Assembly: GCA_030295235.1 (NCBI GenBank)
Contig: AP026124.1
Span: forward strand, 992,001 to 1,056,000
Origin: Fistulifera solaris
Lineage: Eukaryota
Direction of reading: 5' to 3'
Length of the DNA stretch: 64,000 bases
This document shows, one piece after another, positions 4,451-49,465 of the stretch; position 1 is the stretch's first letter; each line of letters opens with the position of its first letter. A program made the position numbers and the translations under genes. The notes below the pieces were generated by a model that did no database searches, was not told the DNA's origin, and saw only the letters and a program-made list of their open reading frames with translations.

Positions 4451-6021
4451 TCACTTAGCGTCGTCGACCGTAAATTCAGCACGGCCCCAGGATTGATCTC
4501 GATGGCAATATAGTTCACTGATGACCATCCCCGTGGCAAAGTCGTCAACAAATTGTCGTTTATCTACCTGAGCAATGTGGAGGCGCGTTGACTCACGCGT
4601 CGAGGCAATTAGTTTGCCCGCTGCAAGATCATCGCAGAAAGTTTCTGATCGGATGGCCCAGACCTCCAAAGCATCCACGTCAAATATTGCATCAACGTCT
4701 CGTTCCTTTTTCAAAAGTGATCCTGATTCAAATGTCGTGTCCATAGTTCCAGCGTAACAGCCTTCTAAGGACGGATGCAAATGCAGTCGAGGGATGTCGG
4801 CTGCAATTCCACCAATTGCCAAGCCTTCCAGAGGTCCCTGGCCCCGGCGATAAGAAACAGGGGTATTCAAAAATTGATGAAAACATCTGCTAGACGTATA
4901 AACAGTTTGTTTCAGTGGGCTGTCAGATGTCGCATCATCTCTCATCATATTGTAGCAGGTCCATGAGGGCTGAATGCGGAGAAGAAATGTCGCTTTCACA
5001 GCCATTGGGAATGAAGCCTCATCGCTGCTGGTAGAGTACCATTTAGGACCGTTCTTCCAAGGCAATGCTGTGTAGAAGCCAAGCACTTCATTTTCTGTAG
5101 TTCGAATAAGTACCAAGGTAGGACCCATGAATGATACCAAAGCATGGGAAAAGCTGGAAAAAGCGAGTCCGTCCTCGTCACTGTTGTACAGTCTGCGATC
5201 TTTCTGAAACCAAGGGCCGCCCAAACCCATCAAAGACAGATGGAAAGGAACAGGGTCCAGTGGATGCTTCCAAAAACCTGACAAGTCATTCAAATAATCA
5301 CTTTGTCGTTCACAACCAGTAATCCAGTTGAAAAGGGATGACTTATACCGTGGATTGGAGAACGAATCGTTTTGTAGATTTGTGCCGACGAGTGTCGCGC
5401 CCAGAAGCGCATAATGGAAAACAGTAGAGAGCAGGTGTACAGCATGCTTTGCTTGTCCCTCCAACCACACTTTGATTTGTATCGGTGACAAGTAGCAGTC
5501 CCTTTCATCCTTCAATGATGACAAAGTGGACAAGGATTCAGCCATCGTTTCGCGTATTCTAGTTTCGTTCCTTCCTCTCGACACCAGCGACCGAAAGTGT
5601 AGCAAGTAAGCAGCTTTCGCGAGTCGAAGAATGAAATCAGCTATTCGAGAAGGCGAACAGTCGTCACCGAACGCTTGGTAAAGTCGCGCAGCCAAAGCTT
5701 GTGCACTCCCTCGACCCGTGAGTGTGATGGCCGTTTCCATGAATTTGGCTCTGGCGTGCAATTCTGGTTGCTCATGTTCGAAAATACCGACAACGGCGGC
5801 ATTCTTATACTCCTGTTGAAATATTTGTGATAGTTCGGGCAAAATATCTGTCTCCACGGACACTACAATATCCGTAAACTCGTCTTCAACCAGACAGCTC
5901 GATAAACGCGGAGTTGATCGCTCATCACAGTGTTCGTAGACGGCAAAATTCCAAGCAGGCGATCCAGTTCATGATCACGAAGAGGATATCGATCAAGAAG
6001 TGATTCGCGAAGAGGATTCAT
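4451..6021 (-). CDS. TLDc-domain protein
   Basis: ORF 4451-5863 has TLDc motifs (GPTLVLIRTTENEVLGFY..PW, TFLLRIQP, GLAIGG, FDVDALEVW). Probable start MNPLRESLL at 6021 with a frameshift near 5870; possible 5'UTR intron 6052-6136. The 5' end is uncertain. Confidence 0.75.
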
Positions 6022-6213
6022 AAAAGAAGCTCCAGATGATGATAATATGAACTGTGAATGGAGTAGCATGAAGTATACGATGAAAGATGCCATGTTTCGA
6101 ATTTCTAACCTCACCAAGTACGTAGATTGTACGTACCACTCGTAGGGAAATTTATCGGCCGAGTGATCACCCAGATATTCAAGATTTTCACTTTGTTTGT
6201 CGCCGTTGTCTCG

Positions 6214-6482
6214 CTTTGCCTTCGTTTTTGGCCACGGGCGAAGAGGAAAAACCAAAATATTGAAATATTGCAGTTCTTCCATATAAGCAATCGTTTATTT
6301 CTAAAGAATGATATTATTCATCGGGATTTCGAAATGGGTGTGGTGTCTTTTTCTTGTGCAATGTTGGAGTCAACACGTCCGGTCGTCAGCCGTTCGGAAA
6401 ACGGCGTTACCCATCCCGTCCGGTATCGCTGGATCAAAGAAGTCACCACCATTCAAGAATCACGAATTGTGGGACTCGCATC
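6214..6482 (+). repeat. Left copy of ~269-bp host duplication flanking the retrotransposon (contains a truncated carboxypeptidase 5' end, ATG 6308)
   Basis: ctttgccttcg...gggactcgcatc recurs at 13010-13275 with only single-base indel differences. Confidence 0.95.
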
Positions 6483-6498
6483 GATGGGTCTGATAAAC

Positions 6499-6685
6499 AC
6501 AGTTAATCCTATTCACGGCAGCAATAGAATGAAATAGAGGCATGCAATAGATGAATTACGTTACACCTTCTAATCATGGAGATGACCACCATGTGTTGCA
6601 TGTTGCGACCGCGCAACGCGAGGTACGACGGCTCATCCGTGAACGGCCGTACATCCGTCAACCGTAGCATGACCGGATTCGCTGT
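6499..6685 (-). repeat. Extra LTR copy A (187 bp)
   Basis: acagttaatcc...ggattcgctgt; one substitution versus copy B; followed in element sense by the same 15 nt (6484-6498) that follow the 5' LTR. Confidence 0.9.
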
Positions 6686-6872
6686 ACAGTTAATCCTATT
6701 CACGGCAGCAATAGAATGAAATAGAGGCATGCAATAGATGAATTACGTTACACCTTCTAATCATGGAGATGACCACCATGTGTTGCATGTTGCGACCGCT
6801 CAACGCGAGGTACGACGGCTCATCCGTGAACGGCCGTACATCCGTCAACCGTAGCATGACCGGATTCGCTGT
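6686..6872 (-). repeat. 3' LTR (copy B, 187 bp)
   Basis: Head-to-tail with copy A at the junction ctgt|acag; lies ~170 bp downstream of the pol stop. Confidence 0.9.
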
Positions 6873-7041
6873 GTCCCCGGGAGCATGTCGCGAACTGGTT
6901 CTCACATGATCAGACTGCAGAGGCCCCTTCATTTTCAAATGGGGGCGGGTTGTTTTAACCCATGACATGTAAAATATGTAAAATAAATGAAACTCTCTCA
7001 CTGTCGACACCATCGGGCGACAATCAGCACAAGAAATAACA

Positions 7042-10000
7042 TCACCACAACACCCGAGAGCTGAGATCACGAAGACGCGGACCTCCCAACAACTTGGTGA
7101 GAATGTCACTCAAATTGCCTCGCCATCTTCCTTCGTCAATCGAATAATACCAGCAGCAATCGCTTCACGAACTTTGTGATACGCCACCGCATTAGCTTTC
7201 TTTTTCAAAGGACTCTCAGGGTGTGTCGTATTCTTGACCACGGAATCATTATCGCAGAAAACAGAAGTTGGCCCTTCAATCGGTACTCCCATCATCCCGG
7301 GAGTTTATAACGCAAACCTTCAATCATCTCGACGGCAATTTTCAAAGCTACTATCTCACTTCCAAATGTAGAAGTCTCAACAGTTGTCTGGCGCTTTGAG
7401 AACCAAAGAATAGGAGCCCTGTTTACAAAAAACAAGCACGCCACTATGTGAACGTCGAGTATCCCTACAACCGGCATGATCCGCATCGCAGAAACATGAA
7501 ATGAGCACAGGCTCACCACGCTCCTCCCGGTTTGTCTGGTGGAATCACTTCAGCTGCATCCGGATAAAACTCGCCTCCAGTCCCTTCTTATGAACCGTCT
7601 GTCATCAATGAAAGGCCTGGTATCATCAAAAACCAAAGTAGAACGGTCGTGAGATTTCAAGTAAGCAAATATGTGAAACACTTGATCAAGATGACCTTCT
7701 CTAGCTTGCGCTAGGTACCTCGACAACATCGAGACCGGTACAATGATATCCAAGCGTCCCAACTCGCATAACCATCGTAACACGCCAATCAACCCCTGGA
7801 AATAATTCTGACGCCGATCGTCCAATTCTGGTGAAACATCCAATTCCGGACGGTATCCTGCACTAAATGGAGTCGCCCGCTTTCTTTGGTAGATCTAAAT
7901 GAACTTTGTTTAGCTCAGTCTCGACCTCGCTGATAGCCTTTTTGGTATACTTTTCTGACGAGAGTGCCCAACGGTCCTTTGTTGGGTCTTCAGCATCATC
8001 AATATGCCATTTTTTAACGTCGGGCTCCAAGATATAGTTCCGGCTCTTCCGCTTTCCGTCTTTAAACTGAAAGATTTGTGCAATTTCGAACATCTTATCA
8101 GGATCGATACTTTGTCCTACAAGATCATCCACGACGCCAACAAATACTCGTATTACTTGGTGCCATCCGGCTTCAGGGCTGGCCGCATCCAGATGTCAGG
8201 ATCAGCCTTACACGGTATAGCCAAGTTCCCGTAACTTAGATGCGAGGGTGTGAACGGAATCGAAATCCGGCTGACGGAAGTCCATACAAAGCACGAACAA
8301 TCTTAGCCGGGCGACCCTGGTTCGAACCAAATTCCAACCCTGTCCTATACCAGTATTTCTCTTTGATCGGCCGTTAGATAAGCTGCTCTGAATATCGGCA
8401 GACAACACTTTCAAGTTATTCAAAGCAGCAAGCAGAAAGAACAGTCTTACGGAATCTCTCGACACGACAGATGAAAACGTATTCTCCTTCGGTTCATCGA
8501 CTTTGTGACCGTCTGCCACAAACCGTGCCTTGCGGACTAAGGTGATCTTGACGTCGAATATCATGTGACACTTGATCTCCTTATGACCCACAGGAATCAA
8601 ATCCTCGGCATTGAATTCGAAGGCAATCGGAAACATTCTTCATCTCTTTCTCAATCGCTTTCCGCCAGTAATCCGTACCGGTATCGCCGATCTATCTGTA
8701 AGGCTTCCGCCACAGTCTTTGGCAATCGAACTCCATACTTGTGAGTTCTCTTCCAGTATCTGTTCTTGGTCTTTGCAATAATCCGATCCTTTTTCCCGAA
8801 TCACGGGGAACCCACCAGGCGAACGCCGGTTCGTCGTCGATCTTGGCTCCAACTGCATAAAGCGCAACTTGTACTGGATGGGACTCCTTGATATCCGACA
8901 AACGGACCCAATCTGAGCTTCCATCTTTCCATTCGCACAGCAGTTCCCAGCCCCTGGTGGTAATCTTCCGACTAGGATTGCTGCCAGTTCCGTCAGGCAG
9001 AAAACCGTTCTCCTTGGATACTGCATGACCATTTTTCCGATGATCAACAATCTCCGATAATACTGCAAACATCCGACCCTCATCATCAATCTGAGCTTAA
9101 AGATTCTCAGCAATAATGTTAGCACTGTACGAGTCAACCGTCCCATCCGGAAACTCAATCTCGTGAATATCGCGGTGTCTAGGATTGGATTCTCATTCGC
9201 TGAACCTATCGGGTATACCGTCATCGTTTTTAACCCTCCGCTTGACGACACCATGCCTCAGCTCACCACCGACTAGGAGTTGAATCTCTGAGTTAATGTA
9301 GTGATCGTGACGCTTCCGGAGTATAGTCATCCAAATCTGGACGAGGTTCCTCTGGCTCTGGCTGTTCATCCGCATCCACGTCAAATAGATCAGCAGGCAT
9401 TGAAACGTCTGGTAGCAACTCTTCGTCGAGTTCCGCTGGTGTCCCCGATCTTTCGTTCAATGATAGCGGTCAGTTCATCGACTCTAGCCTTCATTGCATC
9501 GGTTCCGAAATCCTGGGCATCCACCGCCCACACCGTGGATCTCACAATCGGTTGACAAGACCTTGGGAGAATCCAGTAACAATCACCAGATCCGTATTCT
9601 CCAGCTGGCCCTAACCAACGACCTAGATGATGCTCGCCATCTTCGTCCAGATACCACACCCAGTCATACCACTCATGCTGAGCATAGGTACTGATATCGG
9701 GTGTGTAGCCCTTAACGTGCTCAAAAGGTGTCCGCCCTTGCAATGATGGAATGCCCAAAGCTGTAAAACATCGAATGCGCTGACCAAGTCGCCAAGGTAC
9801 GGCCAGAGCCGCCGTGGCTAACGCTTTGTCGTCCACTTCCGAATCCCACGTTTGATTTCTCGCACTTCAGATTCAGCTCGGTTCTGCCACCAGGAGAATG
9901 GCTGCGTGAAGGTATGATTGATGTGATAACGAGACACCACCTTCTCCCACTCAGTGTTCCCGGTTCCACTAGCTCCTTGTTCCCTGGAGTTGTCAGTAAT

Positions 10001-11192
10001 CAGCTTCTCCGGTATCCCATCCTCCTGGACCAGATTCACCAATCCATGACTTGCAAGACGCTTTGACTTCATCGGCCAGAACCGACCGTAACCTTTTCCG
10101 TTGGTAGTCAACTGAGCACAAGTTTCTCCACCCAAGCCTTTATCCTTGAAGAAAACACTATCTGAATACCATCTTCCTCTTAGCGTTGGATGCCTGAGGT
10201 ACGGTTGTGATTTCATTCGTCGTTGAACTGGATGTACCACTTTCCGAATTCCTTTCTGTGTTGTGGTTCTGATGGTATTAGAGGCTATCGTTGCCGATTC
10301 CCCATCGCTTACCCAACACAACTGGCGACAATGCCGGCTTTGGTGCTTCCTTCCTAAACGCCGCAACCTGTCTCGTGTCAGACCAGTCCCCGGAATCTTG
10401 ATACCGCTCATGACAGAAACCACAGATGTCTGAAAATAGTAGACCTTTTGCCAATCCGCAACAATGAAGTCCCCGTTCTTGGAGTCCACGATCCACCATG
10501 TCCCCCGGGCGGAATGCAAAGGGTCAAAGTCATACCGGGTTGTCAGCAATCACCAGTGCCGATATCTTACGACGAACAGGGTATGTTGGGTAAAGAAAGT
10601 CCACATCTTTAGCCGCCTGCTCAGCTCTTGAAAACGTGAGGATGAAGGATCCCACTCGTCCTCCCGACGTCACATAGATACGAGATGCATTACGTAACTC
10701 GGTGTCAGTTGGTAGGCCGAAGTGAAGCCTGAAATAACACCGTCCATAGAAAGAGGAATGACAAGTTCCGGGTTGCTCAGGAGGGCGCAAAATGATAGAG
10801 TGTCGTGATTCGGGAACATACTGAGTCGGACTGTCTTCCACGACATGACCAAAGTCACGGATCTGGTTCGGAGATAACAGACTAGAAGCTAACCGGTCCC
10901 CAAAATACAACGCCTGTCCAAAAATCAAAAGAATAACTTCGCCAGTTTTGGGATTGTCATAAGCGGTAGCACATGTGGCAATCGGAATGTCGGACAACGG
11001 TTGATACTCAGGGCTGTACGGAGAGACTTGTACCGTTTCCCCACTAGCTTCAAGTAAAACCATATTCCGTCCAGCAACGACCGTATCCGCATGGCTATCG
11101 AGCTCACATCGATCAAAAGAGCCAGCATCGTCCAGGACATCCATCCTATAGACGTGCCGTTCAACACAATGAATGTGTCGGAGCGACCCTAG
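7042..11192 (-). CDS. pol: Copia Pol polyprotein (protease, integrase, chromo-like domain, RT, RNase H), broken by many 1-nt frameshifts
   Basis: PR LDSHADT. IN YSD..ITDN..QNRAESE. RT CHMIFDVK..RKARFVADGH, LSADIQ, xVDD near 8125-8135. RNase H FCDADHAG, VETSTFGSE, FCDNDSV, NLSDILTK..RVLW* (stop 7042-7044). Confidence 0.92.
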
Positions 11193-12590
11193 TCAGAGAC
11201 TGGGGTTACCCTTGCTCTTCTTTGCCTTGTGTGCCGCACGACCAAACTGTTCTCCCGGCATTTTTCATTGGAACTTCTTCATCCGGTGGCACTACTGCTA
11301 TCATCGGCTTTAGCTGCTGCTGCTTTAGCAGCTGCGGCCGCTTTCTTCTGTTGCTTCTTGTTTTTCTTCTTTGCAGCCCGTGCGGTTTTCACGTCTGCCT
11401 TCTGACTTTCCGTCAAAGCGTGGAAAGCGCCGGCTGCCAGTTACCGCCTTTGACCTCAACGGACAGCTTCTTCCATTCAGCTGCTGAAGACGTCTTTGCA
11501 TCACCACCTGCGGTCTGCATTCCCGCGACCTGACGACCTTTTCTTCTTACTCTGAGAACTAGACAAGCGATTGTTCGAGTTCACAGTGGAAAAATACTTC
11601 TGGGTTGCATCAAGTCTTCCATCAGCTCGTTGTTCCCGTAGACATGCAGCTTTGCTTGAGACAAGACATCACACGTGATCCCGCTCAAGAAATCTTGCAC
11701 CTTTTTCTCGACTCAGGAACAGGTTCGCCACAGTAAGAAAGTTCGTTGTGAGCCTGCAAGTGCGCAGTGATGTAGTGATCGAAGGTGTAGTCACGCTGAG
11801 GTCCTGCGACACTGGGCGTCCGCAATGTCATTGTAAGCTTTGGTCTTACGGTTCAATCTTCCATTTGCAGTGTCAGTCTGTCCTTTTAAGGTAAGGATAG
11901 CCCTTCTTCCATCCTTTTGGGTATCAAACTGCTTGATGTAAGTCCATCCGGGCCCATCTTGCACCAAAGCCTTGAATTCATTCCAAACTCGCAAGTTATC
12001 AGCTTGATAATGATCCCCAGAAAGTACGGTACAATGGTGAAAGCGTGCATCAAAAGTCGGATATGCTGCATTGAGTTCTGCTGGTGTGACTTCTTCCTTA
12101 TCACGGAAAACATAGTCCAACGGAATTTCTGCTGCACCTCGAATGCTACCAAAGTAAGTTTGCACAGCTTCCCAAAACTTGACCCACTCAGACATCTTTT
12201 TTCAACTTCGGGCGGCTTCTGCACATCTTGATCCTTCATGGACGCTGCATATGCCTTCAATTCCGCCACACGACGGCCGAAGTGTTGCTCAATTCTGCAA
12301 CTGTGAGGTGTGCAGGATTCGGATTTTCAACACCCATCCGAAGTCTGTAGAATCGCCCCACTTTCTCACAATCTTCAAGTCTTCAACAGTCTTAGGTGTT
12401 GGGTGCACTCTCACATTTGCCGGCCTGTTTGGATGAGGATACTTCAAAATTGAAGAAATTGTCTGTGCAATTGTGTCCTCCTCCATTGCCAACAAATCTG
12501 CTATGTTCGCAATGTTATTCCATGCAAGTTCAGCCCTGGTTGCGCGTTAATACCCAATCGAGTCTCCAAGAGGTTGTTCCATGAAGCCAT
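11193..12590 (-). CDS. gag: Copia Gag (frameshifted in this sequence)
   Basis: ATG at 12590 (MASWNNLLETRLG). Fragments WVKFWEAVQTYFGSIRGAAEIPLDYVFR, YQADNLRVWNEFK, DGRRAILTLK; basic C-terminus QFGRAAHKAKKSKGNPSL* ending at TGA 11193-11195. Confidence 0.8.
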
Positions 12591-12809
12591 GTTGAGAGAC
12601 CACTTCTTCTTTTAAAACAGGACAAAGAGAAATTGCAAGAGATTGAGCGTTTTCGCTCGTGATGTACTGTGACTCGAAGAGTAGTAGTACAGATTGAACG
12701 TAGAGTAAAATTGCTTGCAAAAACGAAAATGTCTCCGCAGCAGCAATTGTCAACTTGTCTTGTGCTGTTGTGGTTCAAATCGAACTCCTTCGACCTGAAT
12801 CAAAGCTGT

Positions 12810-12824
12810 ATGGGTCTGATAAAC
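12810..12824 (-). promoter_or_regulatory. Primer binding site GTTTATCAGACCCAT (half-tRNA type)
   Basis: Directly follows the 5' LTR. Its complement A-TGGGT-CT-GAT-AA-AC has tRNA anticodon-arm geometry. Confidence 0.7.
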
Positions 12825-13009
12825 ACAGTTAATCCTATTCACGGCAGCAATAGAATGAAATAGAGGCATGCAATAGATGAATTACGTTACACCTTCTAAT
12901 CATGGAGATGACCACCATGTGTTGCATGTTGCGACCGCTAACGCGAGGTACGACGGCTCATCCGTAACGGCCGTACATCCGTCAACCGTAGCATGACCGG
13001 ATTCGCTGT
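12825..13009 (-). repeat. 5' LTR (copy C, 185 bp as read)
   Basis: Matches copy B apart from two 1-nt deletions. Confidence 0.9.
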
Positions 13010-13275
13010 CTTTGCCTTCGTTTTTGGCCACGGCGAAAGAGGAAAAACCAAAATATTGAAATATTGCAGTTCTTCCATATAAGCAATCGTTTATTTCTAA
13101 AGAATGATATTATTCATCGGGATTTCGAAATGGGTGTGGTGTCTTTTTCTTGTGCAATGTTGGAGTCAACACGTCCGGTCGTCGCCGTTCGGAAAACGGC
13201 GTTACCCATCCGTCCGGTATCGCTGGATCAAAGAAGTCACCACCATTCAAGAATACGAATTGTGGGACTCGCATC
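13010..13275 (+). repeat. Right copy of the host duplication (continues into the full carboxypeptidase gene)
   Basis: Direct repeat of 6214-6482. Confidence 0.95.
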
Positions 13276-26511: not shown

Positions 26512-27035
26512 GATGTTGAGCACAGTTTGATCCGACGCCAGGAGCAGCGGGATACAGAGTCGAAATAAGAAGTGTTGAGAACTACGTTAAAGGATTGGTT
26601 TTGGTTTGTCGGAGCAGAAAAAGAGTGACAACGAGAAGAAGCAGAGGTGTAAAAGAACCCGGATATCTTGAAATTCGACATCATCCGTTATAAGGTTACC
26701 GTTACCAGGTACCGTACCGCACCTGGTAGTCTAGTTTTGACTTATTTACAGCAACAACTATACCTAATACATTACTCCTGATTTCCTAAAGTCAGAATAA
26801 AATTTTGATGTTCGACTGGTTTTTCCATTTGTTCTTTTTCATTTCCTCACAAATATTTCAATCTGGCACTTTGCTGATTGCTGAGTACCTGGCAAGCTCT
26901 AGCTCAGTGCTAGTAGAGGGCGAGTAAGGAACCCGTTTCCCAATAAGGGTGGAATCGCCGTGGTACTCCTTTTCTCGGATTCCGAAGAACTCTTGAAACT
27001 GAGATGAAACCATGATACGCCGCTTTGGTCCTAAG

Positions 27036-27452
27036 TTCCAGAAATTCTGGATGCGATGAATTTTGGTCTTACAAAAATCGGTGTACGTTCCAGAAATTCT
27101 GGAGGAGCTGAATTTTGGTCATACAAAAAATCGGTGTACACTCCAGAAACTTTGGAAACTCTATTTTTGATAATACAGAAAATCTGTGTACGTGACAGAA
27201 ATTCTACGTGACTTCCAGAAATTCTGGACAGGGTGTCTCGTCATACAGAAATTCTGGGTAGGTTTTGCAGAAAATCGTGATACGCTGATTTCGGTTCAGA
27301 AAAATCCGCACAAGTTCCAGAAAAGTTGGAGACGGTGTTTTGGTCGTACAGGCATGCTGTGTACAAAGTACGTTGCCAAATTCTAGATGATCTTCACTGA
27401 TTTTGGTCCTAAAGAAAATCTAAAAGCTGCGTACGTTCCAGAAATTCTGGAA
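27036..27452. repeat. Degenerate tandem array with palindromic core TCCAGAAATTCTGGA
   Basis: Cores at 27038, 27090, 27143, 27195, 27215, 27245, 27317 and 27438; the first four are spaced 52-53 bp apart. Confidence 0.85.
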
Positions 27453-49300: not shown

Positions 49301-49465
49301 CCACACTCTCAGATTTTCTGGAAACGACAATATATCATAATATCACACTCCCAGATTCTGGGCAAGTAAAAACTCAACACGCCCAGATTTTCTGGAGAAG
49401 TGAAAATACCACTCGCCCAGATGTTCTGGGGACGTCAAAATACCAAACGCCCAGATTTTTCTTCG
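49301..49465. repeat. Short array with core CCAGATTTTCTGG
   Basis: Five cores at 49309, 49351, 49383, 49417 and 49451 (32-42 bp apart), each preceded by a CAC/AAC-containing C-rich motif. Confidence 0.8.

Follow-up and report, generated by a model that had tools for sequence, protein, structure and literature searches.

Introduction

Several described systems come close to parts of the locus analyzed here. Plant Bianca elements, which belong to Ty1/copia, use an inosine-edited half tRNA-Ile as primer (PMC6317226), and reverse transcriptases read inosine at tRNA position 34 as G (PMC8062790). The first plus-strand strong-stop DNA of Ty1 and Ty3 includes a copy of 12 nt of the tRNA, is displaced and piles up in the particles as a dead end (PMC5371799), and Ty1 cDNA intermediates are captured at breaks (PMC11372161). 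The Tf1 reverse transcriptase adds non-templated bases (PMC11042837). When HIV or ASLV integrates by one end only, hundreds to thousands of host bp are duplicated, and the bad end carries additional viral DNA (PMC5041404). In the diatom copia elements known as CoDi, 3 of 26 families have termini other than TG/CA (PMC2806351). A Chlamydomonas paper on large target-site duplications (TSDs) deals with LINEs only. No natural insertion combining an LTR-LTR-PBS end (PBS, primer-binding site) with a long duplication was found in the literature searched, which lies mostly outside subscription journals.

The locus described here lies in a window of 64,000 nt of Fistulifera solaris (contig AP026124.1, positions 992,001 to 1,056,000), and all coordinates below are those of the window. 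It carries an LTR element whose 3' end reads LTR-LTR-PBS and which sits between two copies of a host segment, called A. Four explanations are weighed below, and the preferred one, a one-ended integration of a cDNA that carried its own strong-stop DNA, is given about an even chance.

Architecture of the insertion

The element lies on the minus strand, in the order 5' LTR, PBS, coding region, a GGGGAC motif resembling a polypurine tract (PPT), and 3' LTR. Its parts and the flanking host segments are as follows, with X1 standing for the short-read contigs of one public run.

6214..6482, plus strand: segment A, left copy; 266 bp in X1 and 269 in the assembly, spanned exactly by one X1 contig at depth 30.2 against 15.1 in the flank
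6483..6483, minus strand: extra base, C in element sense, absent from leader and target and likely non-templated
6484..6484, minus strand: base 15 after the LTR (T), identical to the leader base and opposite tRNA G26; other families that share the PBS have t, a, c or g at this position
6485..6498, minus strand: extra PBS copy, complementary to tRNA-Ile(AAT) positions 27-40 by 13 of 14 Watson-Crick pairs plus C opposite A34/inosine; an X1 contig starts at 6484
6499..6685, minus strand: extra complete LTR (ACAG...CTGT), from sequence comparison and LTR-end patterns
6686..6872, minus strand: 3' LTR, end to end with the extra LTR at 6686/6685, the join being seen in the assembly only
6873..6878, minus strand: likely end of the polypurine tract (GGGGAC), with an identical motif ahead of the 3' LTR in the C4, C3 and CAAG-family copies
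7110..12546, minus strand: coding region, fragmented as assembled, with RVT_2 at 8211-8639 and an integrase-like region upstream of the reverse transcriptase (copia order)
12811..12824, minus strand: normal PBS, behind the 5' LTR
12825..13009, minus strand: 5' LTR, whose U3 end joins the host precisely at 13009/13010, a junction likely made by integrase
13010..13275, plus strand: segment A, right copy, immediately upstream of an M14 carboxypeptidase gene or reaching across its start, with in-frame ATGs at 13130, 13157 and 13298

The LTR-LTR-PBS end is confirmed in the assembly. As an earlier note on this DNA had claimed, the 3' LTR (6872-6686) runs without a gap into a second complete LTR (6685-6499); the two 187-nt copies are 99.5% identical and abut where ctgt meets acag, with no spacer between them. 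The extra piece begins at the U3 terminus and covers the whole LTR. The stretch 12810-13009, which comprises the 5' LTR, the PBS and one further base, matches 6484-6685 at 98.5%, and similarity to the leader ends there. The locus as assembled totals three LTRs and two PBS copies. Both LTR-end patterns occur in three copies at the locus and in two on C4. The same note had described the tail as exactly a 15-nt PBS with none of the leader, and the 15 nt are indeed those found behind the 5' LTR, but the part matching the tRNA amounts to 14 nt (6498-6485), and base 15 (6484) is the leader's own. That these 15 nt might be a normal part of the LTR, the possibility raised in the note, is ruled out by the C4 and C3 copies, which end in ..TGT and pass straight into a 4-bp target duplication.

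Towards the host, the U3 end of the 5' LTR meets segment A exactly, and the opposite element end is aberrant: its PBS-host junction shows no microhomology and one inserted base (6483). Host DNA at 6214-6482 recurs at 13010-13275 with 97.8% identity. Neither the inserted base nor this 266-bp duplication had entered the earlier description. With that duplication and one PBS-terminated end, the locus departs from the pattern of a short TSD and two precise LTR ends.

The insertion site lies between divergent TLDc and M14 carboxypeptidase genes, and the right copy of A keeps the gene-proximal sequence, possibly with the first codons. Only one further match to A is found in the genome, an 80% copy on C1 within a collinear region that has no element. 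There, C1 (1051000-1059500) carries a collinear copy of the flanking genes at 88-91%, as in a hybrid genome, and its intergenic stretch contains a different internal repeat. Just left of the duplication, at 6119-6180, lies a 60-nt remnant of a dispersed repeat with 32 matches of about 80%, some of them about 427 bp apart. Elsewhere in the window, short degenerate tandem repeats with periods of about 52 and about 34 nt occupy 27022-27451 and 49303-49459.

Classification and relatives of the element

Judged by its sequence, the element is copia-type, because the window fragment matches RVT_2 (E 1.8e-5, below the curated cut-off), RVT_2 is found above the cut-off in all six relatives scanned, and the domain lies downstream of an integrase-like acidic spacing. 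In the seven relatives found (P0001-P0007), whose names are uninformative, RVT_2 is downstream of the matched region. The integrase-like character of the region upstream of the reverse transcriptase comes from a D..D-35/40-E spacing of acidic residues, read by eye; Pfam rve and PDB give no match to this region, and no integrase, protease, gag or RNase H piece could be named by the Pfam and PDB searches. As in Ty1/copia, the LTRs are direct and are accompanied by a PBS and a PPT. The TG...CA termini are absent.

Genome-wide there are 11 exact copies of the PBS motif, two of them at the locus and the others in 9 further elements. A 4-bp TSD flanks 7 of these 9; the remaining two are an element with a truncated 5' LTR (L047, mis-paired) and one for which no LTR pair was found (the C5 element), both of them counted as misses. 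A second PBS was found in none of the 9, and the CAAG family yielded no end-to-end LTR join. The sister copy on C4 matches the element at 96.8%, and its TSD, ACGA, sets the termini as ACAG...CTGT.

Two types of termini, ACAG...CTGT and CAAG...CTTG (L011, L012, L043-L046), occur among these elements, both non-canonical and both flanked by TSDs of 4 bp. Each family has a PPT that finishes in AC and a PBS that starts with GT; a processed dinucleotide could be the cause, and these AC/GT dinucleotides are missing from the LTR-LTR join observed at the locus. The 3' LTR of the C3 relative (L012, about 7011-7362) is interrupted shortly after its start by about 350 bp of other sequence. Additionally, L046 contains a third LTR (about 8371-8616 in element sense), 94% identical and about 900 bp past the CAAG-family 3' LTR, which is probably a solo LTR.

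The primer-binding site and its tRNA

The PBS pairs with positions 27-40 of tRNA-Ile(AAT), placing a C opposite A34, and the match stops just before G26. Its length is taken as 14 nt because pairing covers positions 27-40 once inosine 34 is read as G. Allowing one mismatch, the PBS pattern has 36 matches; A stands at the anticodon wobble position in 5 of them, and all 5 are tRNA-Ile(AAT) genes. ARAGORN calls no tRNA at the first 20 of the 36 loci, and the tRNA genes are among the other 16. Self-priming from the element's own LTR was considered and rejected, since it gives 9 of 14 pairs against 13 of 14 with tRNA-Ile.

Position G26 of tRNAs is usually dimethylated, a modification that leads to misreading or stops, and Trm1-family proteins are encoded in the genome. 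Base 15, which lies opposite G26, is variable (t, a, c, g) among families with the same PBS. The same 14-nt PBS is common to several families with unrelated LTRs (C3, C4, C5, C6, C15, C22, C25, C33 and C37; L018-L024, L027 and L028).

Evidence from short-read contigs

An automatic guess classes the X1 run as RNA, but its contigs cover all 30 bins, sum to about the size of the genome and are read as DNA; they may come from the same strain, so they serve as a technical control and do not count as an independent biological sample. Contigs of X1 to X3 were compared over 4600-6720, and 8 of the 21 X1 records were listed. X1 contigs break exactly at 6214, 6482 and 6484, and these ends imply branch points of the kind expected from two copies of A together with an A-PBS junction. 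The contig that covers exactly segment A has twice the depth of the flank contig. The leftover depth fits two single-copy records, one running from the LTR into A at 6214 (15.0) and one across the A-PBS junction (15.5), both derived from depth; for the second, a 30-nt leader overlap at depth 27 is an arithmetical alternative. Contigs of X2 and X3 run from A into the right flank. The 266-bp duplication and the PBS-host junction are real. A mis-stitched heterozygous empty allele is excluded, as the left flank and the LTR-A record each have the depth of one copy and together add up to that of A (15.1 + 15.0 vs 30.2).

The check that had been proposed for the LTR-LTR join, read support at 6685/6686, succeeded in part: X1 supports the PBS-host junction and the duplication, but the join itself is absent among the 8 of 21 X1 records listed. 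X1 contig 8 is unbroken across 6499, where a path through the join should enter; the ordinary 3' junction on C4 causes no break in the LTR contig either, which indicates that graph simplification is at work in X1. The bins at the U3 end need one more single-copy record, and either the join (depth 8-12) or a plain PPT junction (19.3) would supply it. LTR depth per copy is 19.3 if there are five LTRs and 24.7 if there are four, against 18.8 +- 4.2 from 11 single-copy estimates, and depth thus mildly favors the doubling. Overall, the doubling of the 187-nt LTR is very probably real, mainly because a long-read assembly would be unlikely to repeat 187 nt exactly up to both termini.

Small differences between the copies are probably base-calling errors. 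Five single bases of the assembly (6388, 6415, 6461, 6514 and 6641) are missing in X1, and 55 of the 63 indels between the element and the C4 copy lie beside CG, vs a background of 31%. As these differences are probably errors, the insertion appears to be recent. Indels beside CG (window 6214-13009, and L011) are likely base-calling errors at methylated sites, and frameshifts in the repeats of this assembly are unreliable.

Origin of the insertion

The preferred reading, to which about an even chance is assigned, is one recent copia insertion produced by one-ended integration of a cDNA capped by dead-end plus-strand strong-stop DNA. Minus-strand synthesis would be primed by the 5' half of an inosine-edited tRNA-Ile, in keeping with the PBS match to positions 27-40. 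From the PPT, plus-strand synthesis would then copy the LTR and the attached tRNA and stall at the modified G26, where one or two stray bases may be added before the strong-stop piece is displaced, as in Ty1 and Ty3. This piece would become attached by its 5' end to the U5 terminus of the full-length cDNA, whether ahead of integration or in the course of repair. Integrase would insert the U3 end only, which is the end with the precise host junction, and the gap would be closed by host polymerase and end joining, in line with the 266-bp duplication and the junction lacking microhomology.

The end of the extra piece lies one base beyond the tRNA match, beside G26. To our knowledge, only plus-strand strong-stop DNA, among the normal intermediates of the standard scheme, runs from U3 to the far edge of the PBS. 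The claim that a strong-stop DNA had been captured, put forward in the earlier note, is stronger than it was, since the extra piece stops at the boundary of the tRNA-Ile match, beside G26; it is the best reading of the locus, qualified by the fact that base 15 is the leader's. The note had also attributed the aberrant left junction to the co-inserted intermediate. The junction is aberrant, and the 266-bp target duplication with a precise opposite end points to one-ended integration followed by host repair as what produced it. One precise end, one aberrant end and a large host duplication, the marks of one-ended integration, are all present, and the usual short homology at the junction is absent. 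The other proposal of the note, a 2-LTR circle, fails on the count of parts: a plain circle integrated here would give two LTRs in all, and the locus has three together with two PBS copies.

Several points weigh against the preferred reading. The LTR-LTR join is missing among the X1 records listed, and contig 8 crosses 6499 without a break, although graph simplification is at work there. Base 15 is the leader's T, where a C would be expected opposite G26. An 8-nt match, CTTTGATT, is common to the leader just past the PBS and to the target just past A; its chance is 0.36% for one 20x20 comparison, chosen post hoc, and the final junction does not use it. Moreover, this is a single case. The CTTTGATT match hints at a longer donor.

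Such a donor is the core of the first alternative, which is considered unlikely, though it is the best of the rivals. The integration would again be one-ended, but the extra LTR and PBS would have been copied from a longer molecule, either the 5' end of the same cDNA reached through a 2-LTR join or a second cDNA lying head to tail, and would have been cut back, or have switched to host sequence, near the PBS by chance. The leader base at position 15 and the 8-nt match beside the junction, at 0.36% per test, speak for it; host polymerase is described as appending viral sequence copied from the same DNA (PMC5041404), and LTR-LTR junctions occur in Drosophila (PMC5932611). On the other hand, the cut has to fall within 1 nt of the edge of the tRNA match, and because the 8-nt match is missing from the product a second deletion is required.

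A further alternative, judged improbable, accepts the 266-bp duplication as real and treats the doubling as an assembly artefact, so that a single 3' LTR would carry behind it a PBS copy that had not been removed. In Tf1, a PBS tail persists on about half of the cDNAs (PMC11042837), and one molecule would thus suffice for this end; the missing join among the X1 records listed and the unbroken contig 8 agree with this, and an ordinary PPT junction accounts for the extra U3-end depth as well as an LTR-LTR record does. Nevertheless, the concentration of indels beside CG suggests long reads, which can span a 187-nt repeat, the doubling is exact to both termini, and depth per LTR copy lies closer to the single-copy estimates with five LTRs than with four.

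The weakest explanation, a quite improbable series of steps in which a normal insertion was followed by recombination with a 2-LTR circle or by a second insertion, and then by repair of a break, with loss of most of the second copy and duplication of the flank, can draw on the frequency of tandem elements and element-mediated recombination (PMC11899658, PMC2806351), but tandems formed by recombination have one common LTR and double insertions retain a TSD where the copies meet (PMC5932611), neither of which is seen at the locus, and all parts look to be of the same age, as A collapses into one X1 contig and the differences in LTR and A fall at CG-type error sites. A double insertion at one site is likewise rejected on its own, the join being terminus to terminus and containing no TSD.

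Under the preferred reading of a cDNA capped by strong-stop DNA, a wider and more tentative interpretation can be offered, which is thought possible but somewhat doubtful. The locus would be a natural chromosomal fossil in which the strong-stop DNA of a copia clade with non-TG/CA ends, primed by half a tRNA-Ile, was ligated to its own full-length cDNA, blocking one integrase end and forcing a promoter-sized duplication, with the 3' end of the primer (position 40) and the stop at modified G26 both recorded. Wild-type retrotransposons would thus make HIV-like aberrant integrations in nature, by poisoning their own ends.

Significance

Each ingredient of the insertion is already known, and the insertion is a single accident arising from known processes, not a new system. 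If the preferred reading is true, it provides a natural, retained case of one-ended integration with a long host duplication and a captured replication intermediate, events known mostly from engineered or drug-treated systems. It also yields testable predictions on priming in this copia clade, namely the use of an edited half tRNA-Ile and a stop at G26, and it indicates a route by which LTR elements could duplicate gene-proximal DNA. Annotation pipelines that demand short TSDs would miss or mis-call such copies.

Comparison with described systems

With the CoDi elements of diatoms the locus shares a 6.3 kb copia element with short LTRs, and three CoDi families also lack TG/CA termini (PMC2806351). 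The main text of that paper does not describe primer-binding sites or an insertion of this kind. Bianca elements resemble the element in having a PBS directly behind the LTR that is complementary to the anticodon arm of an inosine-edited half tRNA-Ile; they are, however, a plant lineage, the element described here ends in ACAG...CTGT, and the likeness lies in the PBS (PMC6317226).

The strong-stop DNA of Ty1 and Ty3 and the capture of Ty1 cDNA at breaks also provide an LTR with a short tRNA copy and cDNA-specific ends in chromosomal insertions. In those systems, the pieces are captured alone at induced breaks and the primer is the 3' end of the tRNA, whereas here the piece is attached to a full-length element and the PBS matches the anticodon arm (PMC5371799, PMC11372161). 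Integrase-independent insertion of Tf1 proceeds by annealing at PBS-like targets and yields tandems with one common LTR (Li et al. 2022, PMC11042837), while here the junction shows no PBS match in the target, and the LTRs lie end to end.

The aberrant integrations of HIV-1 and ASLV (Varadarajan et al. 2016, PMC5041404) are alike in combining one normal junction, an aberrant end with added viral or element DNA, and hundreds of duplicated host bp. Those described in that paper were induced in cell culture by drugs, integrase mutants or mutated ends, whereas the present case is a natural copia insertion, and the bad end, which is truncated in HIV-1 and ASLV, is here extended and has no microhomology.
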